DNA from: Malacoraja senta
Lineage: Eukaryota
Direction of reading: 5' to 3'
Assembly: GCA_038087875.1 (NCBI GenBank)
Contig: CM075990.1
Coordinates: forward strand, 4,342,001 to 4,406,000
Length of the DNA: 64,000 nucleotides
In this document: piece after piece, positions 1-62,599 of the stretch
Position numbering within the stretch: the stretch's first letter is position 1
Layout: each line of letters starts with the position of its first letter
Notes under the pieces: generated by a model
Told to the model about the DNA's origin: nothing
The model's input: the letters and a program-made list of their open reading frames with translations, nothing else
The model's database searches: none
Position numbers and translations under genes: made by a program

Positions 1-310
1 ACACCAGAACCTATTAAACTGGTCGATATCCCATCTCTTGCAGGGCCCCAACCCGAAACGTCACCTATCTATGTTCTCCAGAGATGCTGTCTGACCCACC
101 ACAGCTTTTTGCGTGTATCTTCGTGATGAGAGATTGGATAGATTGCCTTTATTCTCACCGGCTCACAGGAGACTGGAGGGTGATCTTTACCGAGGTCTAT
201 TGAATTATGACGGACATAGGATAAAGCAGCAGAATCTTTATCCCATGGTAGTGGAGTCTAGAACCACCAGCCACTGTGGAAAATGTAGCCGCTCAGATTT
301 CTATTTTGAC

Positions 311-598
311 CGGCACGGTGGCGCAGCGGTAGCGTTGCTGCCTTACAGCGCCAGACACCTGGGTTCAATCCTGACTACGAGTGCTGTTTGAATGGAGTTT
401 GTACATTTTCTCTGTGACCACGTGGGGTTTCTCCAGGTGCTCCAGTTTCCTCCCACACTCCAAAGACGTATAGGTTTGTATGTTAATTGGCTTCGGTAAA
501 ATTGGAAACTGTCCCAAGTGTGTAGGATAATGCTAGTGTACGGGGATCGCTGGTTGGCGCGGACCCGAAGGGCCTGTTTGCGTGCTGTATCTCTAAAC
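311..598 (+). mobile_element. tRNA-derived V-SINE (HE1-like), near full length
   Basis: A box TGGCGCAGCGG (319-329), B box GGTTCAATCC (362-371), V-domain-like core (ttcctcccacactccaaagacg), CR1/HER1-type 3' tail ending ctgtatctctaaac. Confidence 0.85.
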
Positions 599-1327
599 GT
601 TAGTTTAGTTTAGTTTGGTTTAGAGATACAGAGTGGAAACAGGCCCTTTGGCACACGGAGTCCACACCGACCAGCGATCCCCGCACATTAACACTACCCT
701 ACACACACACAGGACAATTTACATTTATCCCAAGCCAATTAACCTGCAAACCTGTACGTCTTTGGAGTGTTGGAGGAAACCGACTGAAACCGAAGATCTT
801 GGAGAAAACCCACGCTGTCATGGGGAGTACAAACTCCATACAGACAGCACCCGTAGTCGGGATCGAACCCGCATCTCTGGTGCTGAAAGCGCTGTGTAAG
901 CCCCTGTCCCACTTAGGAGACCTAAACAGCAACCTCTGGTGACCTTGCCCGCCACCCAAGGTTTCCATGAGGTCACCAGAGGTTTTGGTCACTCTCCCTA
1001 ATGGTCGAAAGTGGTTTCCGCGTGGTCGAGGCTTCATCTAGGTTGCTGCTATTTTTTCATCATGATTAAAACCGGCCTCGACTAAAAATAGTGTTGCCGT
1101 TTTAAAAATCGATAATTTTTTAGTCGCAGGTCTAGTCGAAGCCGGTTTTCTTCATAGTCGAGGAAGGTTTTCAACATATGCGTGGGAGGCGGTAGGAGGT
1201 TGCAGGTCACCTCGACCTTGATTTTTTTTTGGGTGGCGGGCAAGGGCACCAGAGGTTGCTGTTTAGGTCTCCTAAGTGGGACAGGGGCTTAAGGCAGCAA
1301 CTCTACTGCTGCGCCACCGTGCCGCCC
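599..1327 (-). mobile_element. HE1-like V-SINE interrupted by a MITE
   Basis: (TTTAG)n tail at 599-623, body to 898, tRNA head resumes 1290-1327; reverse complement matches the 311-598 copy. Confidence 0.85.
899..1289. mobile_element. MITE with ~60 bp terminal inverted repeats (PIF/Harbinger-like)
   Basis: AGCCCCTGTCCCACTTAGGAGACCTAAACAGCAACCTCTGGTG... at left, its reverse complement at right; TA/TAA flanks; no ORF. Superfamily is inferred from TIR and target. Confidence 0.8.
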
Positions 1328-1963
1328 ACTGACCTAAACTCCCAAATCTAACCCCTCTCACCTTCCACCTATGTCTCTGGTTCTTGATTCCCCTACTCTG
1401 GGTAAAAGACTATGCATCTTCCCTATCTATTCCCTTTATGACCTTATACACAACAAGATCACCCCTTATCCCCCTGCGATCCGAGGAATAAAATCCTAGG
1501 AAAATTCATTTTCATTTTGCCCTTTTACACATTTCCTAACAATTTGATCTACTATTCATATAATAATTTACTGAAACTTAACTTTCATTGCAAGTGTGAA
1601 TTAATACATAATCCCAGCTGTTCATCACTGGGTCACTAAGTACCAAGTCCATTCAAGCCTCTTCGCTGGTCTCCTGCTCTTCTTTCTCTTGGCTCTGGTG
1701 GCACGAGTCCCTTCTGCCCATTGGCACAAGTCTCCAATCTGAAGAAAGGCTGTCTGTTGGGTCCCTCTGCAGATGCTGCCTGACCCGTTGAGTTCTCCCA
1801 AGCTGCTTGTATTTTGTGCAAGATTCCAGCATCAGTAGTTCCTTGCATCTCTAGCCCAAGAGTCATCTGCTTCCCTTCACTTGGACAGTCCTTCAGATAG
1901 AGTACTCAATGGCCCATAGTGAAGTTACTTATTCAGACACGACACCAGCTAACATCGGCCAAT

Positions 1964-2232
1964 GTCTGAAGAAGGGTCCTGACCCGAAACGTCTCTCATC
2001 CATGTTCCCCTGAGACGTGTAGGAAGGAACTGCAGATGCTGGTTTAAACCGAAGATAGACACAAAAAGCTGGAGTAACTCAGCAGGTCAGGCAGCATCTG
2101 TGGAGAAAAGGAATAGGTGACGTTTCGGGTCGAGACTCTTGTCTGCGATGCTGCCTGACCCGCTGAGCTATTCCAGTACTCCGTGTCTTCTATTGTAAAC
2201 CAGTACAGTATCTGCAGCTCCTTTGTTCCTAG
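1964..2232. mobile_element. Penelope-derived hammerhead-bearing element (+) with an inverted copy (2017-2140) inside it
   Basis: CTGAAGAAGGGTCCTGACCCGAAACGTC at 1966-1993; + copy resumes at 2147 (gatgctgcctgacccgctgag); intervening segment is the reverse complement of the same family. Confidence 0.75.
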
Positions 2233-4439: not shown

Positions 4440-4471
<32 letters not shown>

Positions 4472-5044: not shown

Positions 5045-6331
5045 GCAGTGACTAGTGGGGTGCCGCAAGGCTCAGTGCTGGGACCCCAGTTATTTACACT
5101 ATCTATTAACGATTTAGACGAGGGAATTAAATGTGACAGCTCCAGGTTTGCGGATGATACAAAGCTGGGTGGCAGTGTGAGCTGCGAGGAGGATGCTATG
5201 AGGCTGCAGGGTAACTTGGATAGGTTGGGTGAGTGGGCAGATGCATGGCAGATGCAGTATAATGTGGATAAATGTGAGGTTATCCACTTTGGTGGCAAGA
5301 ACAGGAAGGCAGATTATTATCTGAATGGTGTCGGATTAGGAAAAGGGGAGGTGCAATGAGACCTGGGTGTGCTTGTACATCAGTCACTGAAAGTAAGCAT
5401 GCAGCAACAGCAGACAGTGAAGAAAGCTAATGCCATGTTGACCTTCATTGCGAGAGGATTTGAGTTTAGGAGCAAGGAGGTCCTACTGTAGTTGTACAGG
5501 GCCCTGGTGAGTCCGCACCTGGAGTATTGTGTGCAATTTTTGTCTCCTAAATGGAGGAAGGATATTATTGCTATTGAGGGAGTGCAGTGTAGGTTCACCA
5601 GGTTAATTCCCGGGATGGCGGGACTGACAGAATGGGTCGACTGGGCCTGTATTCACAGGAATTTAGAAGGATGAGGTGGGATCTTATGGAAAAATATAAA
5701 ATTCTTAAAGACTAGAAGCAGGAAAAATGTTCCTGATGTTGGGGGAGTCCAGAACCAGGGGTCACAGTTTAAGAATAAGGGGTAGGTCATTTAGGACTGA
5801 GATGAGGATAAATAGTTTCTCCCAGAGAGTTGTGAATCTGTGGAATTCTCTGCCACAGAAGGCAGTGGAAGCCAATTCACTGGTTGTTTTCAAAAGAGAG
5901 TTAGATTTAGCTCTTGGGGCTGAAGGAATCAAGGGATATGGGGAGAAAGCAGGAGCAGGGTACTGATTTTAGATGATCAGTCATGATCTTATTGAATGGA
6001 GTGTAGACAAAACTGCTGGAGAAACTCAGCGGGTGCGGCAGCATCTATGGAACGAAGGAAATAGGCAACCTTTCGAGCCGAAACCCTTCTTCAGACTGAT
6101 GTAGGGTGGGGGGGGGGGGGGGGGCGGGGAGAAGAAAGGAAAAGGGAAGAGGAGGAGCCAGAGGGCTGAGGGATAGCTGAGAACGGGAGGAGGCAGCAAG
6201 GGCTACCGGAAATTGGAGAAGTCAATGTTCATGCCGCTAGGGTGCAAACTGCCCAAGCGGAATATGAGGTGCTGGCTCGAAAGGCCGAATGGTCTACTCC
6301 TGCACCTATTTTTCTATGTTCTATGTTTCTA
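5045..6331 (+). mobile_element. CR1/HER1-type LINE 3' fragment; tail split by a Penelope fragment
   Basis: TSGVPQGSVLGPQLF, FADDTKLGG, HLEYCVQF, WNSLPQKAVEA; stops and frameshifts; tail resumes 6274-6331 (ggccgaatggtctactcctgcacc...ctatgtt). Confidence 0.9.
6002..6274 (-). mobile_element. Penelope-like element 3' end: endonuclease C-terminus plus terminal repeat with hammerhead motif
   Basis: Minus strand 6274-6203 reads QHLIFRLGSLHPSGMNIDFSNFR*, the typical end of PLE GIY-YIG ORFs; followed by CTGAAGAAGGGTTTCGGCTCGAAAGGTTGCC (6094-6064). Confidence 0.8.
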
Positions 6332-8944: not shown

Positions 8945-9093
8945 CCCCTTTGATCTCTGGTTTTCACACCTTACCCTTCCGTATCTCTCTTTCCCTCTCC
9001 CCTGATTGTCGGTCTGAAGAAGGGTCTCGACCCTTCCTTCAGTCCAGAGATGCTGCCTGTCCTGCTGAGCTACTCCACCATTTTGCGTCTCTC
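8945..9093 (+). mobile_element. Penelope-derived terminal fragment, hammerhead with GAAA arm deleted
   Basis: GGTCTGAAGAAGGGTCTCGACCC (9011-9033) joins directly to ttccttc...gagatgctgcctgtcctgctgag. Confidence 0.7.
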
Positions 9094-9128
9094 TTTAATG
9101 CTGAAACTTGCCTTTATTTTCCCCTCAG

Positions 9129-11559: not shown

Positions 11560-12170
11560 TAATCGGCAAGACTAGGCGACCATTTTACCTAACGTTTGCG
11601 TTTTGTCCGCCAAGGCCTGCTTAATCTCCCCTTTTAACTCCCCTTCTCATTTCTGTCCTTGATCTCCTTCATTGCCTGAGTGAGGCCACATGCAAACGTG
11701 AGGTATAGCACCTCATATTCCGCTTACAACGGTATGAACATTGAATTTTTGAAGTAATACCCCTCTCTTTCCCGTCCCCCTTCCACCCCAGTGCGCGCAC
11801 ATATGTCCCACTACTCACCCCCTCCCCTTTCCCAGCCACCTTGCTCCTTTCCCTTCTTCCGTACACTCATCTTCCACCCCGGAGTTCCCTCACCTCTGTT
11901 ACTTACTTCACACCGTCTGCTAATCAACTCCCCTCACCCATACTGTCCCGCTGAGTTATTCCAGCATTTTGTGTCTACCCCTCTCACCTATATCCATCCA
12001 CGCTTTGCCCACCCCTAACTTTCCCAGCTTTCTACCGCCTACTCCAGTAGTTTGATGAAAGATCCCGTTCCGAAATGTCATCTGTCTATTCCCCATGCAA
12101 ATACTGCCCGATAAACCGAGTTCGTCCAGCAGTTTGCGGTTTGCTCAAGATTTGAGCACGTGTGTCTCTA
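11560..12170 (+). mobile_element. Decayed Penelope-like 3' end
   Basis: agactaggcgac..., gcacctcatattccgctt...ggtatgaacattgaattt (HLIFRL..GMNIEF), pyrimidine-rich UTR, degenerate hammerhead near 12052-12080. Confidence 0.65.
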
Positions 12171-12405: not shown

Positions 12406-12607
12406 AATGGAGCGAAGGAAATAGGCAAAGTTTCGGGCCGAAACCCTTGCCTATTCCAGGAAATAGGCAACGTTTCAGGGCGAAACCCAAGGGTTTCAGC
12501 CCGAAACTTTGCCTATTTCCTTCGCTCCATAGATGCTGCTGCACCCGCTGAGTTTCTCCAGCACTTTTGTCTACCTTCGATTTTCCAGCATCTGCAGTTC
12601 CTTCTTA
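12406..12607. mobile_element. Rearranged Penelope terminal-repeat fragments (two minus, one plus)
   Basis: gaaataggcaa(a/c)gtttc..g(c/g)cgaaaccc at 12418-12448 and 12460-12488, then the inverse from 12489 running to catctgcagttcc. Confidence 0.7.
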
Positions 12608-13729
12608 AAAACAATGAAGTTTGGGTAGCAACCTTGCAAGAAGACAGCACTGCCCGGAAAATATATTTGTAGAAGCTGACACTAATTGATGTTTTGCATA
12701 ATGCTCAATGCCTTATACTGGGAAAGCACCTGCAATTTTCCAGGGTTGAACCTCATTGCAAGTTCCCGTCCCATATTTGGTCTGGCACGACACACAGGGG
12801 CTGCCAACACGGAGTGGGGAAAACTGCATTCACCAGCAGCTCGTAAGGGTTGCAGCTAACACTTTGAGGAACATGGCCACTTAGAGAGAGATTATTGTAC
12901 ATAGGATAAAAAAAGATACTATTGAAATCATGACTGAAGTTCTAAATCTGGAGAAGCTAAAAATGGTACCTTGCAATTATTAATGAGACGTTGTGGGCAA
13001 ATAACCAGAAATGTTCATTAGTAAAACTTAGAGACACTGAAACCACCTTCCCATTCCCATTACCAAACTCTTTTCTGGGCAGATGCTGGTTTACACCGAA
13101 GATAGACACAAAATGCTGGAGTAACTTAGGGGGATAGGGTCTTGACCCGAAATGTCGCCCATTCCTTTTATCCAGAGATGCTGCCTGCCCGCTGAGTTAC
13201 TCCAGCATATTTTGTCTTTTCCTTTTCTCCCCAACATAGTTAATAGAAAATGCGGGAAGTGACAGCAAGGGGACATATTGTTTATCAGACCCGTTGGACT
13301 TAGAAACTGATCTGAAAGAAGGTAAGACTACTCAGCAGATGGCCCAAGTAGTTATGGGCCGAAGTCAAGCCTGTCATTCCACATCTGCAGCCAACACTGT
13401 GATAAAACCATATTGTGGCATGCAAATTACAACTGCTCCCATTGTCACCGCTCTCCCACCAGTGGAAACATCCTTTCCACATCCACTCTATCTATGCCTT
13501 TCATTATTCTGTAAGTTTCAATTAAGTCCCTCCTCAACTTTCAGCGAGTAGATGACGCAAGATCATCTGGTGACACTGTAGAAAGCCTGCAGCCTGCCAG
13601 GTTAATTCCATAAATCTCTTCTACTTAGGGAAATAAACTGCTAGTGCCTTAGGCAGCTGGGTTAGGCAATTGTTGCCTTCAGTGGGGATGTGGATCTAGA
13701 AATTCCTCAATGATTTGAAAAGTGCATTC

Positions 13730-16210: not shown

Positions 16211-16782
16211 ATATTTTGCTTGGGCAGCTTACAACCCAATGGTATGAATATCGATTTCTCTAACTTCAAGTAACCTTGCTTTCCCTCTCTCTCCATCCCT
16301 CCCCCATCCTAGTTCTCCGACTAGTTTCACTGGCCGAAGATAGACACAAAAAGCTGGTTAGGCAGCATCTCTGGAGAAAAGGAATAGGTGACGTTTTGAG
16401 TTGAGAAGATACTGCCTGACCCGCTGAGTTACTCCAGCTTTTTGTGTGTATCTTCAGTTTAAATCAGCATGTGTTCCTTCATAGTTCCTTCCTACAGTTT
16501 CACTGGCCTCCTGATTAATTTTATTGATTATATACCTCATTGTCACCTTCCCCACAGCTAACAATGATCCATTCTACATTTCCTTGAGCATCGTCTGCAT
16601 TGATCTGAAGTTTTCACACTTTATCCGTCCATATCTCCAGTCTCCCTCTCCCCTGACTCTCAGCTTGAAGAAGGGTCGCGACCGGAAACGTTACCCATTC
16701 CTTCTTGCCTGTCTCGCTGAGTTACTCCAGCATTTTATGTCTATTTTCGGTGTAAACCAGCATCTGCAGTTCCTTCCCACAT
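16211..16782 (+). mobile_element. Penelope-like 3' end with nested fold-back copy (16336-16495)
   Basis: 16211-16273 reads IFCLGSLQPNGMNIDFSNFK*; degenerate hammerhead 16665-16695; inner insert bounded by AGTTTCACTGGCC at 16323-16335 and 16496-16508. Confidence 0.8.
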
Positions 16783-17427
16783 AAGAAATAACCAAGCCAG
16801 CTGTACTGACTTTCTGCACACAAAAATATAAACCTAGAATTCCATTGAACAAAGCTCCTTTTGACAGTCTTTTTTTTAAACCAAATTGCAAAGCAATTAT
16901 TTCTGGGTTATTTCATAACTTTCTACAATTTCAGGCAGGCACCTCCGGGAATGTGATACCGTTATTACCTGTTTCTATGTTGGAACATAGGATTGTGTCT
17001 TTCACCTGCAATGTTACTTTTGCAGCATTGTATGGGAACTAAGACCATGTGGTACTGTTGCATCTATTGTTGAGCACTCCTGGGACAATTTAGTTTAGCC
17101 AGCACGTTGTTGAACTGAGGAGGTAATTACTTTGCTGCATCTTTAAAAGTGACAACTCTTGGTGAAAGATTTAAGTGAAAGAAAGCTGACGAAAGATCAG
17201 TGACTTCTTCCCTTGAATATCTGTCACGATGAGGTGTCATCTCAATGAATATTAAATCAGTTAAAAGCTGTTGAAATAGCGCAGGGAAGTGGCACTGAGG
17301 TAGAAGATCAGCCAAGATCTTATTGAATGTCGGTAAAATCACAAGGGGCCAATTGGCCCTTCCTTACTTTTATTTCTTCTGCTAATATGTAAACTGCAAT
17401 AGTATTGAACATAAACTTCCAATTTAA

Positions 17428-17455
17428 CTGAAGAAGGGTCTTGACCCGAAACGTC
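17428..17455 (+). ncRNA. Minimal hammerhead ribozyme core (stem I 5' strand lost)
   Basis: CTGAAGA-A-GGGT-CTTG-ACCC-GAAA-CGTC; element 17428-17518 lies between CAATTTAAC repeats (17420-17428, 17519-17527). Confidence 0.6.
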
Positions 17456-19160
17456 ACCCATTCCTTCTCTCCTGCTGCCTGTCCCACTGAGTTACTCCAG
17501 CATTTTGTGTCTACCTTTCAATTTAACAGATCCCTTAAATGGTAAATATTTTGACAAACAAAAAATTGGGAATTCCATGTGAACAACTATATGGAATTTA
17601 GTTTGATTTTGGATGGCAGAGGTTGAGCAGCCATTTTAAAATAACACAGGCCTCAATTGTACTTTCTTTTATTAGTTTGATGATGCTTTTATAATAGAAT
17701 TAATACAGACAAATGAAACAAAACAGAAGAATGCTGGGAGCAAGGTGTAATGTTAACTTCACTGGAAAAAAAGTAACTTTTTAACAATAAAAAACGAATC
17801 TATCCTTGAAAGTAATGTTGATACACTTGATGAAAGCTACATAGAAACTTACTTATAAACTGTTTGCACTGTGGCCATAGCAAGACCAATTTTAGAGAGA
17901 GTATGTTTCTTAACAGAAATCCATTAAAAACGACATTGTCTTATTTATATCTTTTAACCAGCAAATTATATTGCTACACCTCAAAAATGAACTAGTATTC
18001 TCATCGCAGGACTGTGGAAACCAGATAGAAATCAATCATATTGAGACACTGGCCACATTAGGTTTAGTTTCTCATTAATAACATATACATTTATATCTGC
18101 ACATGCTAATTGTGATATGCAAAAACTGAAAAATAATGTTTTTGCCTGGAACAAATTATTTAATTCATTTTAAATATAATGTAACAATTTGAAATTTATA
18201 TATCCAGAAAAAAGTTAATATTAGAATAAGCTTCTAATAGGACTTGTCTATTCAAATATATTATCTTGTTGTAATTGTGATAAATGCAGATTAACTAACT
18301 TAATATATATTTTATTTCATGTTGTTTCACAATTATTTCCCCGGGGCCATTCTTGAGTTATCATTGGGAAACTGCAAAATCAAGCATATTATCAAAAGAT
18401 CCATTACTTTTAAAATAATGATAGATTTGAGTATCCAATCTACCTTGCTTTACGTGTAAGTTGGATCAGTTGGCGTGTCTGATCTTTTTCTTCTGCAAAC
18501 AGAACGTTTATTATATCATGCATATTTTGCAGCAAAAGGCCTCAACAGGTTTAACTGATAGTTAAAACAGCGAATGAACAAATGTGTGAATGGGATTTGA
18601 ACTGCCTGAAAGTCATTTAATTTTGCTTTTTTGACTAAAAATGTGTTCCAACCTCTGGCTATAGGAATGTTTTTCAGTCTAGATGTTACGGCATGGGGGT
18701 TGGAAAAGGGTGCCATAGATGTTGTTGCTTTCATGCAACTGCAATAATAACTACTTTATGAGCATGTGGCATTAATTAGGTAGAGACTGCCTTCTACTAT
18801 GGGTGATTAATTTGAGTATTATTTTTAGAGTGCTGAATAATGAATTAGTATATTGAGAGTATCACTGAACACCTAGAATTTTAAATTGTGTCATGGATTT
18901 TTAAATGTTTTTTTTTATATATGAAATCATGCTACTTGCATGTGCTGTTGCAAAGACACTTTTTTAAAGTTGGAAATTAGACTGATACTGCAAAACAATT
19001 TGTATGTAATTTAGATTGCCCTCTGTACCTAAGAGTCCCAAACCTTCTGTCCTGTAGAACATCTGGACTGCATTGAATGGCTGGAGGCCAAAGGGTTTGT
19101 TATTATTTCCAATTTTGCATGACATTGAATGCATGAAAGATACGTCTCTGACATTGTATC

Positions 19161-23800: not shown

Positions 23801-24013
23801 TTTGTACTGTGGAGTTTAGTTGGAGTTTGTAGTATTCAGTAGCCTGATGGTTGTTGGGATAACCTGGATGTTATCATCTTCTTCACGTGATATAATAAGT
23901 ACAGAGTGAGGACAAGTTCCACCAGGCAGAGGAGAGTGTTAGTTGAGGACAAACGATTGGGTCTCTGTTCAAGTAAGCTTTGGTTTTCTACAACCCAACG
24001 ATATTAAAATTGA

Positions 24014-42470: not shown

Positions 42471-43794
42471 TGTCTGTAAAGCTTTGACCTCAGTAAAGTT
42501 GTGACTTCAGAGAGTTGAAAGATTGCTAACAATCCAGTTTATACATTTGTATTTATTACAAACTGGCGGCACAGTGGCTGAGTGGTTGAGCAGCTGCCTT
42601 CAGTGCCAGAGACCTGGGTTTGATCTTGAACAAGTGGCGTTCATATGTTTTACCTGTGACCATGTGGGTTTTCTCCGGGTACTATATATATTTTTTAAAG
42701 ACACTAAAGGATGTCCTAAGTCGGCCATAATGTGGCTAATATTATTGCAATGCAAAACCCAAACATGAATACAATGCTGAGGATACTCCAGAACACATGG
42801 AATATCACAAATTTGGACTGACAGTAGATGTAAGCATCTAATCAATGCCATAAGCTTTCCAAGACAACCAAGGCATTTTTTTCAGCAAACATCCATTCAG
42901 ATGCCATAGCTTTTGGGTTCAGCAGTTGCAGAGGATATTTTATTAACATACAAGCTGGCGCACTCTTCAAAAAGTAAGAATTAAGACACAAAAGACTGCA
43001 GATGCCGTACTCTCGAGTAAAACACAAAGTGCTGGAAGAACTCGGTGGGTTAGGCATACTCTGTAAAGGCACGATAAGAATAGCTGGTTATTCTAGCAGA
43101 CAGACAAGCCTTCATCTGTTTACCCACAATTGAAAGTATTTGAAATAACATCTAAATTGATTTACAAGATCTTTATTCACCATTACTTTAATTTTATTAC
43201 TGGTTCCAAAATGTTGGCACATAGGATTACAAATATCATGCAACGCTTTATGCTAAAGAAATTTGAATTTGCCCTTCCTTTCCTTCCTCCTTATAGTTTA
43301 TTGTTTTGAGTTCTCAAGTGATAATTGCTTTTATGTGGTAGTCACTGTCAGGCTGTTTATGATTGGTCCCCAATGCAAATTATATTTCTTTACTCCCTTT
43401 CACTGGTAACTAACTAAAATCAAACCCATATTGTTCACAATCTTGATGGCCTTTATGACACCAAAATGGCTTTACAATCCTAGGCAAGGTTACAGGGGAA
43501 TGAATCTGATTCCACTCGTGTGAGCTCAACAGCTGCTAAAAGTCTCATCCATGCCTATGCCATCAGACTTGGCTTTTCCAGTGAATTCCCAGCTGGCCTC
43601 TCATATTTAGTCACCTTCAAATGTGAGATCATTTAAAACTCTACTGCCTCTGCCCAAAGTTGCAGCAAATCTTGGACGCCATCACTTGCGTTTGTAGTTA
43701 ATGCCCAATGTTGCCGTCCAGCACTGTCTCACCCTCTCTCTATTTGTAACTCCTGTTTAAAAGGCTATGAAACACTTCTGAAATCCTTGTCTTG

Positions 43795-44332
43795 AGGGCC
43801 TGTCCCACTTGGCCGTCATTGGCGCGCCATTTACGTGACCTGGTAGTGTGTGGGTAGCGCGGGACGGGCACATAGAGTGGCGTGGAGTTGCGCGCGGTAT
43901 CGCGCAGAGCTCCAGGATTTTTTTCTGGATGAAATCTTCGCGCACAACTGGCCTGTCGCGAAAATGACGGCCAAGTGGGACACTCTGGCGCGGCACAACG
44001 TCTCACCTCCAACAGCAGCAGAAGCAGGCAAGCGATCGCCGAGCTCGGCCTGGGGCTCACGGCCGTTGCGGATCTGGATCCACCCCCACTCCAACTCCCA
44101 GAGCGGGGCCAAGACGATTGGAGATGGATATGAGACTGAAGAAGTCTCGATCCGAAACATCATCCATTCCTTCTCGCCAGAGATGCTGCCGGTCCCGCTG
44201 AGTTACTCCTGCATTTTGTGTCCATCTTCAAATGACGTCACGTGCTCCAGACGGCTGTGCGGATGCATGATGATGCGCGCGACCGTCGCTACCGGCCTGT
44301 CGCGTAAATGACGGCCACGTGGAACAAGCCTT
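43795..44332. mobile_element. Harbinger-like MITE with duplicated right end, inserted in an old L2 fragment (~43540-44560)
   Basis: AGGGCCTGTCCCACTTGGCCGTCATT at left; complementary ends at ~43963-43982 and 44307-44332; Penelope fragment inside at ~44134-44230. Confidence 0.7.
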
Positions 44333-46519
44333 TTATGTTCTATCATTAATGACCATGCTTTCAAATGCAAAGGCTTTGAGCTCTGAAATTCTCCTCCTAA
44401 ATCTGCATCACCACCTTTCTCTTTTTGTTTAGGTGATCCTGTAAAATACACCCCTTTGACCAATATTTAGGAACTCTTGTTAATGTCTTCTTAATGTAAC
44501 TTGGTAACATATTGTTTGATGATGTGCCTGCAAAGCACATTGACAGCTATGTAAATTGAAATTGGTGTTGTCAAGCAAACACCAGCAAAAAAGTCTGAAA
44601 AGGGGTCCAGGCCCGAACCATCACCTATCTATCCATTTTCTCCAGAGATGCTGCCTGACCCACTGAGTTGCTCTATCATTTTGTGTCTATCTATGTTATA
44701 TTCATCAGTCTGGATAAATTGATTTTGCTACTCAAGTTGGGTAATCCCTGACAGTAATTTACATTTTGCACAAACTTAGTTTGCATGCGGTTTCTGTGTA
44801 CAGTACCGCATTTTCTGATGCAAATAGAACCTGCTGCTTTGTTGGGTTATCATCCCTGTTAAATGAAGATGAACATGTAAACAGCATTTACTTGAGAGTA
44901 TTCAACATTGGTATTTATAACTATAAAGAAACGGAAAGAAAAAGTTGCAAGTGTGTTGGTTATGCAAAAAAACACTGGAATTTATGGTATTGTAGAATTC
45001 TGTTTGATTCATTGAGGCTGCTGCTGAAGTTTGATTCATCTTATTGAATTCATGTTGAACTGTAATGCTTCCTGAGTAGAAGAGAAAAATAGGTAGCAAC
45101 ATCCAGCCACAATGATGTTACTCTTGTCATTCCTCAGCAGACAATTAATGATGACATTGGTTTGGTACCGGCGTCAGGCTGACTGCCTATTGTCTCCTTA
45201 GCATGGATGAGGTATTGCGCATTTAAAGTGAAAAAACCTGGAAAAGGTAAAACAAATTCAAGGCAAAAATAATTCAAAGTTTTATGTTTATTTCCTGCAA
45301 TTGATAGGTATCAATGATCAGAGCGTATCAACAATTTGAATGGCAGTAATTGCAACAATATTTACATTATTTTAGTTTAATTTGATCATGTTTTCCTTCA
45401 TCTAATTTTCCTTTTCTAAGTTGATTGCATACATTATGCCCTCTCAGAACCAATAGATCTTTTAGATTGATGGCTGAAACATGTTGGATGTACTTATTCT
45501 CTCTATCTGTATAATTGCCTTTTCCTCTCGTCAGCTTCAGCAGCCACTTTATTTTTTCAGTTAAATATGACATTTTGTTGTCTATGTGGTGGCAAGTCTG
45601 GACCAGCATGTTTACAGTGGGATAGAATCAACGACCTTTGTGATGAGGAGAGTATCACAGTTGAGTTCCAGCGAGCTCTTTCCAGGGTGCATGGATTAGC
45701 TACTTCTTTCGTTAGCTGTCTTAACTCTTGGGTTCATCCCATCGGGCTATTGATGGTCTCAACAACGGGGATCGTCAAGTTGCCTATTAGGTGCTGTCTG
45801 AAAAGAGCTATCTTTGAAGGTTCTTGAGACCTTCAGTTGATTTTCTTGTGGTGTTTGCTGACGCCATTATTTTGTTGACGATAACAGAACGGGTTCGGTA
45901 GTGGTCAGTCTGGTGTGGTAATTATGGATATCATTGTGGTTTCTCACATCTGTCAGTGTTATCAACTGACAGATACCAGTGCCTGTCTTGACAGTGTTAT
46001 CATAAGATCTTGCACTTGTTTATCGTACAAAACTGTGTTGGTTTTGACAACGTGCTGTTCCAAACATTTTGTCTGGAGCAGGACTTCATTGAGAGATTGG
46101 ATTTTCCCATTCTCTTATCTGTCACACCTTTCCAAAGGATTGCATCCTCTCTTCCCCTGGCATTAAAGGTTTTATTGGTAGTCTTGTGGAATGTAGACCA
46201 ATGTATTTTCAAAGCTGAATGTTATGAGATCCTACAGTGAGAGATCCTACAGTGAGTCACTAAGATGCCAGACCAGCACAATCCGGACGGCATGGCACAT
46301 TTTGTAAAGACACCAGAGTGCTCCTGGTGTACCTGCTGCCTTGTTCTTTGACCTAGCCATTAGCTGGCCATTGGGTCTTGCTGAAGGTGGTTATCTCACT
46401 GTCAGAACATCTGGATTATGATAGCAGAGAGAAGTTCAGAACTGGTGCTATTGGGATTGTGCATAATAGTCTCGATATTACAGACCCCCAACCTTCATGT
46501 TTGTTTTGATTCATTGATT

Positions 46520-46812: not shown

Positions 46813-47375
46813 TTATAAGATGGGATGGGTGTGCACCCCAGAGCAAAATGGCAACTTAATTGGCTATTAAGGCTATTAATTGGTTAATGAGGCTATTCAA
46901 AAATCAATAGATACCAAGCTCTGTTGCATGGACATGAACATGCGTGCGCACAAGCAAATTTGTACATAGCCATTCCTCCTCTCTCTCCTTGCATCAATGT
47001 CCCTCCATCAAACAACCTCCCTTAGCCCTCATTTTCCTCATCCTGTCTCTTATTCTGCCACCTGGTCTCTTCCTTCATTCCCTGCTGCAGGTCCCCCCTC
47101 TCCTCTGGGTGCACTACCTTCCCATCTCTGCAGCCCCTCTCCCCCTGCTGCCTTCCTCCTTCACACCCACCCCAACTTCCACATACATACACACTGCCTA
47201 ATTCTGCCACTAACTGCTTTCCTTTGCCTCTTCCCTTTTGGCTCAATTCCCTTGGCTGCCAATTTCCCCTGTTCTCTACTCCTGGGTGGAAATGTGGGGA
47301 GACCTGGTAATTTTGCTGCACTGAAATTATTTTCCTTAGTTACACTTTAAAAACAACGGACTTTAGGATATACTT

Positions 47376-47650
47376 GTGTAAGAAGGAACTGCAGATGCTG
47401 GTTTAAACCGAAGATAGACAGAAAAAGCTGGAGTAACTCAGCGGGACAGGCAGCATCTCTGGAGAGAAGGAATGGGTGACTGAACGTCCATCGTAAAGAT
47501 GAGGGAGTGGGGGCTCAAAGTGCAAGTCATTAAAGGGACGAAGGACATGTGAGGTATCTTGGAAATAGGTCGGGTGAGATTGGACCAGGGGGGATAGGAT
47601 GGAGTCGAGGTACGTGGAAATCAATTCCCTGGGACAGGAGCATGTGCAGA
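47376..47650 (-). mobile_element. Penelope RT fragment fused to terminal-repeat fragment
   Basis: CSCPRELISTYLDSILSPLVQSHPTYFQDTSH is a PLE RT-type segment; joined at ~47480 to gtcacccattccttctctccagagatgctgcc. Confidence 0.65.
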
Positions 47651-49495: not shown

Positions 49496-51432
49496 AATGG
49501 ATATACTTGGTGTGTGAGTGGAGCTGCGTACTTTATTTTTTATGTCTTCACTTATCTTTCATACTCTATCTTATCTACCTCTGCCTGTTGAATTTAGGTC
49601 TATAACCCCTTGGATATAAGTCCTGCCAGGGATAAGGTAGGGTACCTTTCCTCTCAGCTGTTTGTGATGTCCCTTAATAGGATTCAAAAAATGGACATTA
49701 ATGTGTTAATTGGGATGTATTTGTCCTGTGTCTGATGTGACACATTTCCAGATACTGTTGAGAACAATCTCCCTGCAGTAGTCGGTAAATCCACCCTGTC
49801 AATTTTCCAAACCCTTACTTGTACATACAGGCTGTGCAGAAGACAGGCATCCGTAAACTGAGATGACGTATACTTTTGTTGAGGGATTTCAATTGCTGGC
49901 AGAACCAACTTGGCTAACCTGCCTTTATAGTCAAATTCAGCTGCTGTTTTGTGTACATTTTGCCTTCCTGTAGAAAATGTAGTGAGATCTATATCGGCTA
50001 TTGCTTCCTAGTTACTTAATTAGAGGTGTTGGAGAGGAAATGCTCAGATGCAACTATCATGTACAGACCATGAAAGAACTTAATTGGTACATGTGACAAT
50101 ACACTGACCTTGAAACCTTGAACTTTGGCGATTAAGAGTCCATTTGCAGTTTAGGATCCTCAATGAGTCTTCAAAACCTGGGCAAAGAAATTATAACTAG
50201 ATCAGTATCAACAATTAATGACAAGCCCAAACTCGATTAGTAATTTTATGCGATATTCGGTTCCTGTTTTGTTGTTATGGCATTACTCCAGTAGTGAAAT
50301 ATGAACTTTTCTTGATAGTTCTTGAACATAACACATGATAGTTTGATTATGTTATCTCCATATATAATCTCGCAATGCAGATTTTGTTTTGTCTGGCTCA
50401 CGGAAGAATCCATACAATTCATGCAGTGTGCAAAAAAGTCTGAAGAAGGGGCTTGAAACGCCATCTCTCCGTTCCCTCCTCAGATGCTGCCTGACCTGCT
50501 GAGTTCCTCCAGCTCGTTGTTTTGCTGTACACAAATTAGTTGCAGCAGCATAAACTGTACAAAATGGTTAAAGCTCCTGCTAGAGTCTAATACCTTGATT
50601 AATTACTGCCACTTTACCCCTTTCCTTTTCACTAATATTTTGGAGTATTTAGAGTTGAACAAATTTATTGATTGATTCAGAGGTGCAGGTTAGATTGCAT
50701 TCATAACTTTATTCAATTGCCGATGTACAGCAATTGATGTCTGTTTTCGAGATTCAGCGAAATATTTAAATGAGCAAATAACAAAACTTCACAGAAATAT
50801 AACATGGCACTTTTACTTTCCCAACAATCCTTTACCTCTGGTCTCTTGCCCCAGACACACACACTCCTACCACAGTCCCTTGGTAATTTTGGATGTATAT
50901 TCGAAGAGAATTAGTTTGCTTTCTTGCTCCTTTTAACTTCCTGTTAATCAGCAAACATCAAAACCTCATTACAAAAGAGTTCATTTGACCCATCATCTCA
51001 ATCTTGGCTCTTTGCTGAATCAATTGAAAATCAGTTGCAGCCCTGTTCTCTCCTAGTAACCCTTTCTACCAGCTATTCTAATATGGTCCAATGGTCGCTG
51101 CCTCATATACTCTGTTCCAAACTAGTGCTATTTTACTTATCATGTTTTTTTAACCACTCCCTACACTCAGTGAAACATTTTAAGTGTTATATTTGTTTGA
51201 ACTTCTTGGCAGGAGGAGAAAGCAATCTATTAGAGGAAGTGTGTTTGCATGGATTGAAAACTGGCTGTCACATAGAAAACAGAGTTGGACTGTGTAGGCT
51301 AACCTGCCTTTATAGTCAAATTCAGTTGCTGTTTTGTGTATACTTTGGTTCTTATTCAGAGGTCTATTCTGTCTGAAGAGAAAATGTGATCAGTAATATG
51401 GGAATTTGGTATTCGTTTTTGTGACTGGTGGT

Positions 51433-57278: not shown

Positions 57279-59480
57279 ACTTTGCCTTCACCTATGACTT
57301 TATATCCTTTCATAACATGGACACTAGAACTGCTCGTAGCACACAGATTTGTTTAGACATCTGGGGGTTGTGCACAATGTCCTGTAAATACTTGCAAATT
57401 TACAATTTTAAGGCTGAATATAAAAACTATTGATCCAGTCTATAAATGATGCATGTGTTGGTTTGAAATAGTTTGCCTGTCTGGCAAAGAGAGGGACTGG
57501 TCATCAGCATTTGTTGTCATTTGATATCCCTTCAGTTTCAGATTGCCCTGCTTCCCAAGGTTTAGTATTTGCTGGAGCTTTATCATGCTGAATCTGGTGG
57601 GAATTTTATTTTCATAAATGAAGTGAAGACAGCAAGAAGGTCACCTTCAATTCATGTTAGATTTCCTGCTGAATTTGGTGTTTATAAAACTGTGAGCTGT
57701 GATGCCAGATTACAGTTGACTATTGCTGTAGAATGTACTGATCGTTCATTGGTGATGGGTTGGGTTTGGGGAGTGGGGGGGAGGGATTACTACAAAGTGA
57801 GACCACAGGATGTGTGGTCTGCTGTGGTGTTCACAGAAACATGTTTTCTTTTGTTTCTTGGTGTCATCTATTTTGGGTTATTAGACAACATTAAATACAG
57901 GCAACCCCGTAAGTTACAGCAGTTCGGGTAACCAAAACTTGCCCTGACACAATTCACAAACCAAAATATCTGGCTGCAGAATGAAAATCCACTCTCATAT
58001 AAATAAAAGTATAAATAATATACTTTTCTCCAACTTTCGTTTCTTAATATGGGTAGATGACGCAGCTTTGCATCCCAAAATATTACGATTGGGACAGTTT
58101 TCTAAGAATATAACGCCCCAGCCCCCCCCCCCCCTCCCGTAACATGGAGGTCATCTTAGTCTTGCTTTCACATTTATCATACATTCAAATTAATTCAATT
58201 CTTTGATCCCACTCTTAATCTCAGCATTAACTGGGATAATTGTTGCAATTTAAACTGCAATGTGTGGAAGATTTATTTTGTAGGGCAAATTGACTTTAAT
58301 CAATCTTCTAAAATCCTAATGTTTAATAATTATGTAAATAAAAAGAGATATAACCCAATTTTCTCTGTTAACTTTATTTAATCAGTTGACTTGTTTTGTA
58401 AATTTGGGCAGAAGGTTCTGGTATGTTCTGGAGAGTCATATCAAGTTTGGAAACCTTTTCTGAAGTGTATTTCTGGGCCATTAATTGTATGCAGAAATGT
58501 ATTTTGTCTTTTTAGTTAGTAACTGGTACTGAGAATTGGGTGAATTGAAAGTTGCTCGTCCATGATAGAGTGGATAGTGTTAATTTTTTTTTTTGAAGAT
58601 GTTTGGAAACACTCATGATGTTTACACTTGGGAACTCCATGATGTAAAAAATATATTGATTTGTACATTTGTGTCAATAGAACTATCTCCTTTGATAACC
58701 AAGTGCACATTGATGGGTGTTAATGTACTTAAATGTCTGTCGAAAAGGAATAAGATCAGGAGACTGAAGTGCTGGATGGAAAACAAGGCTGCAGATCAGC
58801 AGTAGAATGGAACATAATACAGATCTGGCTTATCAGAAATGTTTCGGATCACGACCCTTCTTCAAACTCTGAAACGTCACCCATTCCTTCTCTCCAGAGA
58901 TGCTGCCTGTCCCGCTGAGTTACTCCAGCATTTTGTGTCTAATGTTGTGTACATCCTTGGCCACTATGTCTCGAGTGTAATTCACTTGCTGCCATTGTTT
59001 ATGTTGTGTCTTAACAATAAAAAGATACTGATGGAGGGATCTAGGTTGCTAGTTGAAAGATATAATGCTATGGGTGTTGATGTATAGTGGACCTAGTTAC
59101 AGTGGATAGTCGACACAAGCAAATGCAAAAGCTGGAATCTTGAGCAAGTTTCATTCTTTTTCAGTTGATGTGGGTATAAGATACAAATGAGTACTTTTCA
59201 GAAGGCAGCTGAGAATTGCTTTGCATATTAAGTCACGTACACTACATCAAACAAGTAGATCAAATGAAGACAATCGTTTATTCAATAAAAGAATAAAAAA
59301 TATAAACAAAATCGAAAACTGCAAAATCTCTTCACTCATTCTCAAAATCACCTCACACTATATGGCATTCAATAGTGTCATATTCAGTAGTGTTTGCACC
59401 TATCTTTAAACAAAGCACCCTTGCCACTCGTGGCCCTCTGGGGTGATATCCCCAGATTTTTAGATCCCCGGTTTTTACTC

Positions 59481-60467
59481 CAGGAGCACTGTTCAGGCAG
59501 CAGCCATGCGTCAGTTTTTTAAACTTTAAAAAAAAATTTTGTATGTTTTAAAATGTGTATTTAATGTTTCTTTGGGTGTCTTGTGTGGGTGGTGGTGTGG
59601 GGGGGGGGGTAAGGGGGAAACCGCTTCGGTCGCCTCCTCCATGGAGAGGCGACTTTTTCCAGGTCGCCTCCCCCGTGGCCTAACATCAAGGATCGGCGCG
59701 GCCTTTCCCGGAGACGTGCCCGGCGCGGCCTTTCCCGGAGACGTGCCCGGGGCTTCAGCGGCGGGTGCAGTGTGGACTCTCGGCGTGGAGCGGGTGAACC
59801 CTCGCTGGAGGGGAGCGCTCCGTTTCGCTGGCCCGGGGCAGCCGGCAGCCTGAAGTCGCAGCCTGAAGCCGCGGTCTGCAGAGCTCCAGCTGGTGCGGCG
59901 TCTACAGCCCGGGATCCCTCGTGGGGGACCCGGGGGAAGAAGAAGCCATCATTGCTGGCCCGCGGCCAACTTCTACTGCGGGGCCGGCATGGACTTACCA
60001 TCACCCCTGGAGGGGAGGTTCGACCGCCGGCCCTGCAGTCTACGGTGCTTCTGGCTGCGGCGGGGACTTTAAATCTTGACCGCCGGCCTGCGGCCTACAA
60101 CAATCTAAAGCCGCGGTCTCCGGTGAGGAAGAGCCGATCCTGGACTGACTTGGACTCTGGTCCTGTCCACGGGGTGAAATGGAGGAGGACTGGCCAAATT
60201 TTTGTGCCTTCCACCACAGTGATGAATGCTGTGGTGGATGTTTGTGTTACATTTTGTGTGTTCTTTATTATTGTATCGCTGCTGACAACCCAATCCTTGC
60301 CGGGTCACTGCTCGTGCGGTCGACCGGTCGGTGCAGAGAGTAGCTTTGAATGTTTGTCTTTCCGTTACGTTGTTTGTATCCCTTTTTTTTTAAAAAGCTA
60401 CTGTAATGCGCCCTTTTAAATTGCCCCTTGGGGATGAATAAAGTGCTTGATTGATTGATTGATTGAT
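59481..60467 (+). mobile_element. GC-rich non-autonomous retroelement, family C, with second tail module
   Basis: T-tract, G-tract, GGGGGAAAC, hairpin 59643-59673, 27 bp tandem repeat (59695-59748), ends ccccttggggatgaataaag + (GATT)n. Confidence 0.65.
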
Positions 60468-61894
60468 CCCTTTCCTTGTTTGAGTGGTGTCCCCACCGGA
60501 CTCTGCCCCTCAATGTTCAGCGGTGGTTGGAGCCTAGACTCTGATCCTCCCCACAGACCCTTGGTGTTGACTCCACCATGGTTCAGTGGGTCCCTCAGCA
60601 TGTACTCCTGCAGTCTGGAATGGATTAGTTGAGAGACCACCAAGTTTCGAGAGAGTCTTTAACCAAGTTGATAATCTTCCAGCAGCATTTGATGTCTATC
60701 TCAATTTGTCCCCGGGAACAGACCGTAAATCAGAGAGTCTTCTGTTTACAGTGTTGTTCGGGATGAACCGTGACAAGGACCCTTGCATTATTCTCCAGAC
60801 CCTCTTCACAGATCCTCGTTCTATGAAGAGATGGGAAAACGTTCCGTAGCAGGGAATTGATAACAATCAAAGTGGTGAAGGTGTGTGGATCGTATGTAAG
60901 TGGGAAAACACTAGAGCCAGTGAGAAGGATGAATTTAAGGGAGGAAGAAATGGGTTTAGTGAGGCAAGAGCAGCCTCTATGGGGAGTTCAAAAGTCAAAA
61001 TGGGTCAGTGTCAAATCAGCAATGAGCATCAAATAGCTGTGGAGAGAGTGAAGGTCAGAGGTTGTTCTCCGGAGATGCTGGCTGACCTGCTGAGTTACTC
61101 CAGCACTTTGTGTCCTTTTGTGTATTAACCAGCATCTGCAGTTCTTTGTTTCTACTTTTCTTTACACAATGGGGAAATGTAACCATGATATTTTCCCTCT
61201 ACTGGACACACCCCCTCAGGTAAAAGAGGACCAGGCCGGCTTGCTTCATTAATGGGATGAGAATCTTTTTAAAATAAAGAGAAAATCTGCTCTTTTAAGA
61301 AAGCCTGTGAGCCATCCACCAAACTATTCCGTTCCACCTGTTTAATTTGAGCACTGATCTCAACTCTTTTTCTCACCTATAGTATTGTACATTTCTGAAG
61401 TTTCAAATAACTGCCCAGCTCCTATAGAAAGCGCAACTGATTGCCTCGACTATCCCCTGCATCAAATAGTCTATGTTCTTAAAAACGTTTGTGTAAAGTG
61501 TCCCAATTACTTTAACTGCTCTATCTTAGTGAGTTCTAGCTCACTTTGTACCAAAGATGATCTTTGATCTTTGCTTTGTACTGTATCCTTTTCCTGGAGT
61601 GACAGGTTACCTCGACTGTCATATGGATTTGTACATGAATGAAAAGCTTGTTTTCCAGCTTTACTCTATGGCTTTATATTCCAAACACATGTAAATATTA
61701 AGATGAGTGCTGTTGGTCCAAGTAATTAGGTCATGGTGTGTCAGGAGTCTGGACTAAAAAGTCCTAGATTTGAAACACATCCATCAAACCCAGATGAACA
61801 AACTTAAAGAAAAATTGGAGTCAATACTAAAAAGTAGACACAAAATGCTGGAGTAACTCAGCGAGACAGGCAGCACCTCTGGAGAGAAGGAATG

Positions 61895-61928
61895 GGTGAC
61901 GTTTCGGATTGAGACCCTTCTTCAGACT
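61895..61928 (-). ncRNA. Minimal type I hammerhead ribozyme, best-preserved copy
   Basis: Minus strand AGT-CTGAAGA-A-GGGT-CTCA-ATCC-GAAA-CGTC-ACC: full core, 4 bp stem II, palindromic ACGT helix III, GUC triplet; element 61834-61930 bounded by ATACTAAAAA (61824-61833, 61931-61940). Confidence 0.7.
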
Positions 61929-62599
61929 CCATACTAAAAAATCGGTTGCAAACTGCTTTGAGTGAAACTGCTGTTTGGTGCATTCAGTAATGTGAGCAGT
62001 CCTAGAAAAGAGCTACCCCAATTTATAAATAGATTTTATTGGACATTAATTGCATTGGGGTAGTCAGTATGACTTCTTAACCCTGCATTGCTAAAATGGA
62101 GTCTAATTTACATCAGATTTTAACAAAGGGGAAATCAGTACATTGAAAATACAATTTCCATTAAATGCGATGATTCAACTTCAAAAAGAGAAAAGAACAT
62201 GACAGAATATAGTCTAATGTATATTCTGTTGAGCCAGGGTAATGGGGAATTGGCAGAACCTTAATATAACCGACACATGAGCTTATGTTTGACATTTGGT
62301 GTGTGGACCAATTTCAAAGTTAGTTTTAGGTGGTAGGGAGAAGGAGGGGTATAGAGAACAAAAGGAATGTCTGTAATAGGGTGGAGACCAAGAGGCTAAA
62401 TGAGACAAATCATGAGAGTAGTGTTGGTTGAGAGAGGATCGTGAAGGCTTGTTTATCAAAGTTGGTCTGTATGGAGGCGACGGAGGTGGAAAGTGGTGGA
62501 TCAGAACAAAGAATAGAAAACAAAACCAAGGCTAATATTGTGAATACCAAACACTGCTGTTTCTGGAAATCTGAAATAAAAGAAAAAAGATCACCTGGC

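Follow-up and report, generated by a model that had tools for sequence, protein, structure and literature searches.

A dispersed repeat of the Malacoraja senta genome as the probable end module, with a minimal hammerhead motif, of Penelope-like retrotransposons

What is the short repeat that returns again and again, on both strands, in contig CM075990.1 of Malacoraja senta between positions 4,342,001 and 4,406,000? This whole stretch of 64,000 nucleotides (forward strand, assembly GCA_038087875.1), called the window in the following, had previously been read from its letters alone. The sequence-only reading described a dispersed family of minimal hammerhead ribozymes, CTGAAGA-A-GGGT-N4-RCCC-GAAA-CGTC with a common tail, of the kind known from the terminal repeats of Penelope-like elements (PLEs), and our analysis supports it in its essentials. 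The repeat is, however, not a free-standing ribozyme family but an end piece of PLEs. It very likely represents the 3'-terminal module, or pseudo-LTR (LTR, long terminal repeat), of endonuclease-bearing Penelope-like retrotransposons, and its sequence CUGAAGA-A-GGGU(N4)RCCC-GAAA-CG-UC/UU fits the minimal hammerhead motif, which is here predicted to cleave solely as a dimer or with the help of a protein.

Copies were detected with the above motif as search pattern (up to three mismatches), with blastn using one copy as query and with an nhmmer profile built from the copies. The pattern matched the window nine times and 100 shuffled versions of it not once; blastn returned 34 pieces and the profile 36 copies and fragments, which together occupy 3,337 bp or 5.2% of the bases. 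All 14 places that had been listed before were recovered (1966, 9014, 16665, 17428, 24178, 44136, 44595 and 50440 on the plus strand; 6094, ~23500, 24141, 25626, ~31536 and 61925 on the minus strand), and the common tail of ~100 bp proved real in the aligned copies, where the unit starts with (A)GTCTGAAGAAGGG and measures about 100 or about 135 bp. The earlier figure of about 20 copies was an undercount. A very high copy number had been expected from one copy per ~3 kb; the expectation holds but the density was set too low, the actual value being one piece per 1.8 kb. The motif end is kept by 18 window copies, only two of which (1966 and 17428) fit the full pattern without a mismatch. In the 1.94-Gb assembly the exact 28-mer CTGAAGAAGGGTCTCGACCCGAAACGTC occurs 18,728 times and its variant CTGAAGAAGGGTTTCGGCCCGAAACGTT 19,101 times, with no occurrence of either in the reversed controls. 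A sample of 464 kb, composed of 264 kb around the window (159 pieces, 5.8% of bases by profile) and 200 kb from 20 arbitrarily chosen places on 14 contigs (83 pieces, 4.1%), held 242 pieces in all; extrapolated to the genome, this corresponds to roughly 0.8-1.2 million pieces.

The link to PLEs is found upstream of the repeat. Comparison of the flanks of many copies revealed a common C/T-rich stretch before the motif, many copies being preceded by an inverted one, and this stretch leads back to the end of an open reading frame (ORF), ...LSVLGLLHCQSEAKRKLEEQHLIFHLGSLQPSGMNIDFSNFK*, that is present in the flanks and in the window itself (stop codon at 16271-16273). A first look at the genome gave 70,860 candidates for this C-terminus; 150 were scored, all with E <= 1.5e-19. 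An open piece of 221 aa (L035:4461-5123) resembles the Pfam family GIY-YIG (E = 1.5e-4, 22.5 bits, cut-off 22.6), and its database relatives are uncharacterised shark and ray proteins, including longer ones in which the reverse transcriptase (RT) domain RVT_1 precedes GIY-YIG. In one of these relatives (P0012, 889 aa) RVT_1 reaches 36.4 bits, above its cut-off, and is followed by GIY-YIG. RT and, at the C-terminus, a GIY-YIG nuclease in a single ORF define the endonuclease-bearing PLEs according to the available text of PMC8557442. A genome search with an RT piece led to loci with open frames of up to 1087 aa, and the five near-intact elements that were fetched (L041-L045) have frames of 749-1087 aa with similarity to RVT_1 and GIY-YIG, share 94.9-99.3% identity with each other and are all 5'-truncated, at differing points. 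In the 911-aa frame of L042, RVT_1 (395-564) and GIY-YIG (815-848) score just under the Pfam cut-offs, and a DKG motif, a C-x4-C-x2-C linker and LIY...YIG are visible; the linker by itself suggests a Neptune-like clade (PMC8557442, sections available).

The module follows the stop codon of this ORF in sense orientation, at a distance of 110 nt in L035 and ~120 nt in L042 and, as estimated from coordinates, of some 185-230 nt in two older copies. Every ORF-linked copy examined has the motif on the coding strand of the ORF, and in all five near-intact elements the profile detects the module on the coding strand after the stop (the motif in four of five by the strict pattern). One of the five, L044, carries it on both sides of the ORF at 3667-6060, namely at 3351-3480 and 6195-6330, in direct orientation as pseudo-LTRs would be. 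In L041, the longest PLE copy, the N-terminal part (2610-3698) is open in a different frame from the RT part (3007-6267); a frameshift or a programmed shift might account for this, as might an unspliced intron. Intron retention is known from PLEs.

The motif itself consists of C3-U-G-A-A-G-A9, an extra A, helix II as GGGU/ACCC or GGGU/GCCC with a 4-nt loop, G12-A-A, A15.1-C-G-U16.1 and C or U at position 17. It thus has the extra A between 9 and 10.1, the G10.1-C11.1 pair, the palindromic 15.2-16.2 (C-G in ACGU) and the H17 that characterise minimal hammerhead ribozymes (min-HHRs) in PMC4209133, where the first three emerged in PLE min-HHRs as features beyond the descriptor. A script form of this descriptor gave 17 matches in the 464 kb, all of them within the present PLE family, and none in reversed-sequence controls; no second, unrelated min-HHR family was found by this search. 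The assignment to the minimal type I hammerheads of Penelope terminal repeats is accordingly supported on both sides, by the motif and by copies that are physically the terminal part of PLEs.

Several results weigh against this reading. As to the protein, the ORFs of this genome stay under the curated Pfam cut-offs (RVT_1 26.9 vs 29.6 bits, GIY-YIG 19.7-22.5 vs 22.6), a PDB sequence search with the ORF gave no relative, no full-length copy with both an upstream pseudo-LTR and a start codon was found, and Met is absent from the first ~460 residues that the L042 frame has inside the element. As to the RNA, helix I comprises 2 bp (U-A, G-C), in solo copies and in those with the upstream 3' untranslated region (3'UTR) alike, where 4-5 bp are the norm for min-HHRs, and helix II comprises 4 bp, short of the 6-8 bp usual in PLE min-HHRs; a 2-bp helix I has been reported for D. 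virilis PLEs (PMC4209133). The hammerhead is missing from the minimum-energy folds predicted for monomer and dimer, and a dimer hammerhead that is imposed on the prediction reaches -13 kcal/mol vs -24 to -32 kcal/mol for the best dimer fold. The two changes that the youngest subfamily has in the supposed loop complete a predicted competing hairpin of 6 bp, GUUUCG/CGAAAC, which buries GAAA. Comparison with Rfam had been proposed along with the original claim, and no hammerhead family matched, neither at gathering score in the window nor at E <= 10 in L042 or its 171-nt module. Such a miss of Hammerhead_1 (RF00163) and its kin is expected for a motif without the helix III hairpin. Copies starting at the predicted cleavage site are not in excess, there is no significant covariation among 115 genomic copies, and the argument from core conservation given below rests on three related consensuses and was made after the data had been seen.

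The missing excess of starts at the predicted cut site indicates that the insertions derive from uncut RNA, as has been reported for the Anolis element (PMC11167929, in the text available). We also share the doubt about monomer activity that was voiced in the sequence-only reading: with a helix I of 2 bp and predicted folds that lack the hammerhead, the motif would likely cut RNA only as a pair or with the assistance of a protein. Cleavage of PLE hammerheads as dimers is ascribed to Lunse et al. 2017 in the accessible part of the review PMC6765202.

Is the motif then under selection? For the statistics of covariation and retention 115 ungapped genomic copies were used; the 11 core bases are all retained in 49 of them and the complete set of features in 28. 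In 64.3% of the 115 every pair of stem II can form vs 61.5 +/- 1.9% with shuffled partners, and 208 of 2000 shuffles attain the observed share. That stem II remains paired while its loop varies is true of the copies listed earlier, but it is not evidence of selection, because the loop holds a CpG (CTCG to CTTG or CTCA) and differs between subfamilies. Genomic copies are dead on arrival and therefore cannot settle whether the motif is constrained; the subfamily consensuses are the informative comparison. Clustering yielded four subfamilies with mean identities to their own consensus of 81%, 86%, 91% and 94.5%. The three usable consensuses have the loops CCCG, CTCG and TTCG, the closing pairs U-A, U-A and U.G, and C, C and U at position 17. 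Their 28-mers differ solely at two loop bases, the closing pair and H17, and all 11 core bases are identical, whereas about 15 of the next 64 bases downstream differ (manual count). Divergence from the majority at non-CpG positions amounts to 8.0% in the core vs 15.2% downstream. Among these three related consensuses the only helix change between subfamilies is one-sided (U-A to U.G). The core is more conserved than the bases downstream of it between subfamilies, in a comparison that is small and post hoc. This would fit selection on the motif in active elements, and a non-catalytic constraint would fit equally.

Such a constraint is the essence of the alternative that survives best, namely that the motif is a catalytically dead hammerhead relic kept for a non-catalytic role, for example as promoter and RNA 5' end or as a protein-binding fold. 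We regard this as a real possibility, though with clearly less than an even chance. A motif that begins 3 nt after the apparent RNA 5' end is in line with it, as are the predicted folds, in which the 5' CUGAAGAAGG of the long form pairs with the 3' tail CCUUCUU (z = -2.1) and competing hairpins are more stable than the hammerhead. Published work points in the same direction: PLE hammerheads cleave poorly in vitro (PMC4209133), core mutants of the Anolis element leave insertion unaffected and no RNA ends were seen at its cut site (PMC11167929, as far as the available text goes), and PLE clades without the motif proliferate well (PMC8557442, with the same limit). However, the three consensuses retain the 11 core bases, G10.1-C11.1, the extra base, ACGU and a non-G at position 17, with changes only where a hammerhead tolerates them, and the hammerhead of the Anolis PLE cleaves in the presence of its protein, according to the accessible sections of PMC11167929.

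The preferred reading, a terminal module of endonuclease-bearing PLEs, can be examined further in the anatomy of the insertions. The module starts 3 nt before CUGA and ends ~97 nt (short form) or ~133 nt (long form, with a 36-nt 'tail') further on. The pieces present in the window are listed below, with the means of detection in brackets where one was recorded.

39..124, plus strand: module copy, profile 15-108 (nhmmer)
1744..1849, plus strand: module fragment, profile 31-138, without the motif end (profile)
1964..2016, plus strand: 5' half of a copy whose motif CTGAAGAAGGGTCCTGACCCGAAACGTC is intact, interrupted by a nested copy (pattern and profile)
2014..2142, minus strand: nested long-form copy, profile 15-143, inserted into copy 1964-2226 (blastn and profile)
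2145..2226, plus strand: 3' half of the split copy, profile 57-136 (profile)
5995..6101, minus strand: short-form copy, profile 4-110, young-type loop TTCG (pattern and profile)
9008..9100, plus strand: short-form copy, internal deletion within the motif (profile)
11943..11978, plus strand: fragment, profile 67-102 (profile)
12045..12147, plus strand: old decayed short-form copy (profile)
12408..12614, both strands: inverted arrangement with 5' ends facing, minus fragment 12408-12448 and plus long-form copy 12489-12614 (profile)
13079..13219, both strands: inverted pair with its joint at 13136-13138, profile 66-125 in the minus arm and 18-102 in the plus arm, 3' ends pointing outward (profile)
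16214..16273, plus strand: PLE ORF-end remnant (...LGSLQPNGMNIDFSNFK, stop 16271-16273) of a 5'-truncated copy extending to 16788
16336..16495, both strands: one composite insertion, minus arm 16334-16406 (profile 22-108) and plus arm 16407-16498 (profile 58-141), with duplication AGTTTCACTGGCC at 16323-16335 and 16496-16508, within the 3'UTR of PLE copy 16214-16788
16658..16788, plus strand: long-form module, profile 4-146, continuous with the PLE 3'UTR and ORF end upstream
17428..17523, plus strand: short-form solo copy, intact motif, flanking duplication CAATTTAA(C) (pattern)
19536..19622, plus strand: fragment, profile 19-105 (profile)
23405..23503, minus strand: short-form copy (pattern and profile)
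24010..24148, minus strand: long-form solo copy, insertion 24014-24145, duplication GATATTAAAATTGA at 24000-24013 and 24146-24159 (profile)
24173..24256, plus strand: copy, profile 6-89, 25 bp from copy 24010..24148 with 5' ends facing (profile)
25528..25627, minus strand: short-form solo copy, duplication CAACCTTGCTC (profile)
29387..29479, plus strand: fragment, profile 25-121, abutting the 3' end of an unrelated CR1-like LINE (long interspersed element) (profile)
31426..31538, minus strand: long-form copy, internal deletion (pattern and profile)
32160..32296, minus strand: long-form copy, profile 8-146 (profile)
36510..36657, both strands: inverted pair with 5'-truncated arms, minus 36510-36571 and plus 36588-36657 (profile)
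42990..43093, minus strand: fragment, profile 31-133 (profile)
44129..44235, plus strand: short-form copy (profile)
44591..44702, plus strand: short-form copy (profile)
47369..47480, minus strand: 5'-truncated long-form copy, profile 36-147 (profile)
50435..50523, plus strand: short-form copy, deletion within the motif (profile)
58869..58947, plus strand: fragment, profile 29-107 (profile)
61064..61149, plus strand: fragment, profile 49-135 (profile)
61830..61930, minus strand: short-form solo copy, duplication TTTTTAGTAT (pattern and profile)
63492..63556, plus strand: fragment, profile 49-113 (profile)

Across the 464-kb sample the motif end is kept by 147 of the 242 pieces, 99 of them solo, 24 continuing into PLE sequence and 24 forming arms of head-to-head pairs (strict criterion). 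Solo copies start at the A three bases before CUGA (T in 75% at -1, G in 62% at -2, A in 63% at -3); the upstream base frequency is 43% at -4 and then gives way to an A/T-rich background. On an extended profile 93 of 159 starts fall within one 40-nt bin and an extension of more than 28 nt upstream of the motif is seen in just 21 of 159 pieces, which amounts to heavy 5' truncation. The 3' ends of the 147 copies form two classes, at profile 99-120 (74 copies) and at 133 or beyond (48 copies), and young near-identical elements end at L042 6151 or 6187, 36 nt apart; both classes occur within one young subfamily, so that they are alternative ends and not subfamilies. Contigs of four other runs rise in depth at L042 6050-6056 and drop after 6146-6151 and 6182-6187, which bears on the boundaries of the module and not on its transcription. 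In a few such contigs 6152 is connected to 6056, a 97-nt junction, either tandem or circular, that has no bearing on transcription or cleavage. A second very abundant short repeat, with ...GGAAACAGGCCCTTCGGCCCACCGAGTCCGC..., was noticed at L042:3117-3207, at L041:2540-2630 and in several copy flanks, and its peak of contig depth is as high as that of the PLE module.

Exact target-site duplications of variable length, 8-14 bp, flank 11 of 84 solo copies (>= 8 nt) vs 0.36% of mismatched controls. About a third of all pieces (82 of 242) lie in inverted pairs with their 5' ends joined and their 3' ends outward, clear window cases being the composite insertion 16336-16495 and the joined pair 13079-13219. 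Adjacent pieces on opposite strands have their 5' ends facing in 41 cases vs 3 with 3' ends facing, in contrast to the equal numbers that random nesting would give. Same-strand neighbours are found in 10 pairs, 4 of them head-to-tail with both motif ends. For PLE insertions the available part of PMC8557442 describes strong 5' truncation, a 5'-truncated copy lying inverted at the 5' end, partial tandems and, at some ends, a tail of 30-40 bp; the insertions of the sampled genome match these descriptions and those of PMC11167929. Pseudo-LTRs, 5' truncation with an inverted copy and a tail extension (36 nt), features of endonuclease-bearing PLEs, are all present. One inverted module pair, L042:8406-8596, folds as a long hairpin with Rfam scores of 43.8 bits for MIR5084 and 22.9 bits for mir-7578, each far under its gathering score; inverted pairs like this one or window 13079-13219 could be mistaken for hairpin small-RNA precursors or be a source of them.

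The prevalence of solo units raises the question whether they form an independent non-autonomous lineage, similar to a short interspersed element (SINE) or to a non-LTR retrozyme, which has its own master copies and uses the PLE enzyme in trans. The 99 solo copies among 147 with an intact 5' end, their sharp start, the concentration of starts in one bin, the 4 of 10 same-strand pairs that are head-to-tail and the contigs joining 6152 to 6056 would all suit such a lineage, and the available text of a 2026 preprint argues for an origin of animal retrozymes from PLE pseudo-LTRs (10.64898/2026.07.22.740005). The subfamilies, however, are alike in their shares of solo (8/12, 28/43, 10/17 and 31/48), inverted and ORF-linked copies (2, 5, 3 and 8), solos carry the diagnostic changes of the autonomous copies, and tandems are rare (10 adjacent same-strand pairs among 242 pieces). 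These like shares suggest that the solos have the history of the autonomous elements and not that of a separate SINE lineage, and we consider the independent lineage unlikely.

If the units are PLE ends, how do they arise? In the model that we propose, the PLE protein would bind the structured ~100 nt behind the motif, nick AT-rich DNA and start reverse transcription inside the bound region at one of two sites. Together with priming from both DNA strands, as seen in vitro for Anolis Poseidon, this would explain why there are two 3' ends, why inverted pairs occur and why copies are so heavily truncated at the 5' end. Two-thirds of the copies have their start exactly at the A of TCA|GTCTGAAG; these would likely be copies of short RNAs begun at a promoter or initiator of the pseudo-LTR, and the sharp 5' start indeed suggests that many units are copies of short RNAs beginning there. 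We presume that the A of this TCA|GTC start resembles an initiator element. Promoters within the pseudo-LTR have been reported for PLEs in the accessible part of PMC6765202. The hammerhead, finally, would cut 3' of GUC or GUU when two units pair via the ACGU palindrome, and the genomic copies would all stem from uncut RNA.

A bolder version, which we put forward as speculation with little probability of its own, holds that the unit of 97-133 nt is a self-contained retrozyme-like replicator nested in the PLE and equipped, besides the hammerhead, with an initiator of its own 3 nt ahead of it and a fold for RT binding and initiation. Any inserted copy might then be transcribed and re-copied by the PLE enzyme from both strands, and the motif might serve as a switch that, assisted by protein, alternates between a state with a panhandle or competing hairpin and a dimeric state that cuts. 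If true, this would explain the roughly million pieces of the module (4-6% of a vertebrate genome) as the largest hammerhead-motif family reported in a vertebrate.

Two further explanations hardly survive. The repeat might be a LINE-mobilised SINE on the other strand, with the hairpin GGGTCGAGACCC and then CTTCTTCAGAC as its 3' end and a hammerhead likeness that arose by chance. At first impression the motif end survives in many copies that lack the far end, the pattern expected from 5' truncation of an antisense RNA; but the motif strand is the coding strand of the PLE, the far end falls into two sharp classes without a smear, composite insertions place the far ends at duplicated target sites, and the descriptor gives no control matches, which leaves this explanation very improbable. 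An origin as a tRNA-derived SINE was rejected: GGGTCGAGACC may loosely resemble a B box, and ARAGORN finds no tRNA-like sequence in the window. Equally far-fetched is a foldback or MITE-type (miniature inverted-repeat) DNA transposon with the inverted pair as its unit, for which the 82 paired pieces and the sub-threshold miRNA-like hairpin could be cited, since most copies are single, the sequence also forms the 3' end of an RT-encoding element, the length of the target duplications ranges between 8 and 14 bp, the arms are unequal and variably truncated at the joint, and neither fixed-length duplications nor precise excision footprints were seen for inverted pairs.

The surroundings of the copies hold other repeats. 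CR1-like LINE fragments, unrelated to the PLE module, lie at window 29500-30813, 37339-38974 and 56552-57352 (minus strand) and 24440-24602 (plus strand). A tail shared between the repeat and the neighbouring CR1-like LINE was considered and rejected; the 3' end of this LINE reads ...GGCCGAATGGCCTACTCCTGC...TTTCTATG and stops before the repeat, without a common tail. Identical ORF translations 1,665 bp apart (38144-38974/40257-40631 and 39129-39521/40794-41186) mark a local tandem duplication in a LINE-rich stretch, and open frames at 35134-36184 on the minus strand resemble a Tc1/mariner-type transposase by their translation. A long imperfect CA/TG-rich microsatellite-like tract at 4275-5000 is open in several frames, the GC skew is +0.23 in 4001-8000, and 24683-24882 is a run of 200 N, perhaps an assembly gap. 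Next to the window, in L008-L010 (same contig, about 4.318-4.333 Mb), identical module copies with their flanks are paired 12,850 bp apart (offsets -22219/-9369 and -24657/-11807), which indicates a recent tandem segmental duplication or a duplication in the assembly.

A module that makes up about 4-6% of the sampled bases of a 1.94-Gb genome is now tied to PLEs and their hammerhead motifs. For the annotation of cartilaginous-fish genomes this means that pieces of ~100-135 bp should be filed as PLE ends and not as unknown SINEs, and that head-to-head module pairs can mimic miRNA precursors. The size of the family and its spread of ages (four subfamilies, 81-94% identity) also suit two questions about PLEs, namely the purpose of the hammerhead and the origin of the odd insertion products, i.e. 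inverted pairs, tails and internal initiation. Hammerheads in PLE pseudo-LTRs and their massive dispersed occurrence have been published before (PMC4209133), as has the dimer model for them (PMC4209133; PMC6765202, the latter in its available part). PLEs as a class are reported from the whale shark in the accessible text of PMC8455134, and the retrozyme survey of the 2026 preprint, as far as available, includes one chondrichthyan (10.64898/2026.07.22.740005). A description of the present family or its scale in cartilaginous fishes was not found in full-text searches of the literature, and the family may already be catalogued in Repbase or Dfam.

Compared with Rfam Hammerhead_1, the motif agrees in the boxes of the catalytic core and in its type I topology, with helix I open, and differs by the absence of the helix III hairpin and by a helix I of 2 bp. 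With animal non-LTR retrozymes (PMC7229834; 10.64898/2026.07.22.740005, both in the sections available) the units share a short non-coding sequence, a type I hammerhead, kinship with PLE pseudo-LTRs and some head-to-tail dimers. Retrozymes are, however, defined there by tandem arrays with one hammerhead per unit and by circular RNAs, whereas tandems are rare here and most copies are solo or inverted. Closer is the Poseidon element PAc of Anolis carolinensis, for which the available text of PMC11167929 reports that both DNA strands are cleaved and extended, that AT-rich targets are preferred, that insertions come from uncleaved RNA and that reverse transcription starts internally just downstream of the hammerhead, in an RNA segment that also serves protein binding. 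The position of the hammerhead just upstream of such a segment, the AT-rich target and insertion from uncut RNA are paralleled here, and the inverted pairs would be the expected outcome of the two-strand priming that PAc shows in vitro. Unlike in PAc, where the start of the ORF overlaps the hammerhead (same source), the motif follows the stop codon here and the ~100-135 nt behind it contain stops. Closest of all are the PLE min-HHRs of PMC4209133, with which the module shares the CUGANGA and GAAA boxes, the unpaired base 9/10.1, G10.1-C11.1, a C or U as H17, a palindrome (here ACGU) in place of the helix III hairpin, a location in a repeat beside an RT/GIY-YIG ORF and an occurrence chiefly as scattered single copies, full elements being few. 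It departs from them in the lengths of helix II (4 bp vs 6-8) and helix I (2 bp vs 4-5) and in its abundance: about 38,000 perfect 28-mers counted and about 70,000 descriptor-intact motifs extrapolated stand against the about 9,000 of Xenopus and about 4,000 of the coelacanth (PMC4209133), a copy number one to two orders above the published min-HHR counts for these animals.

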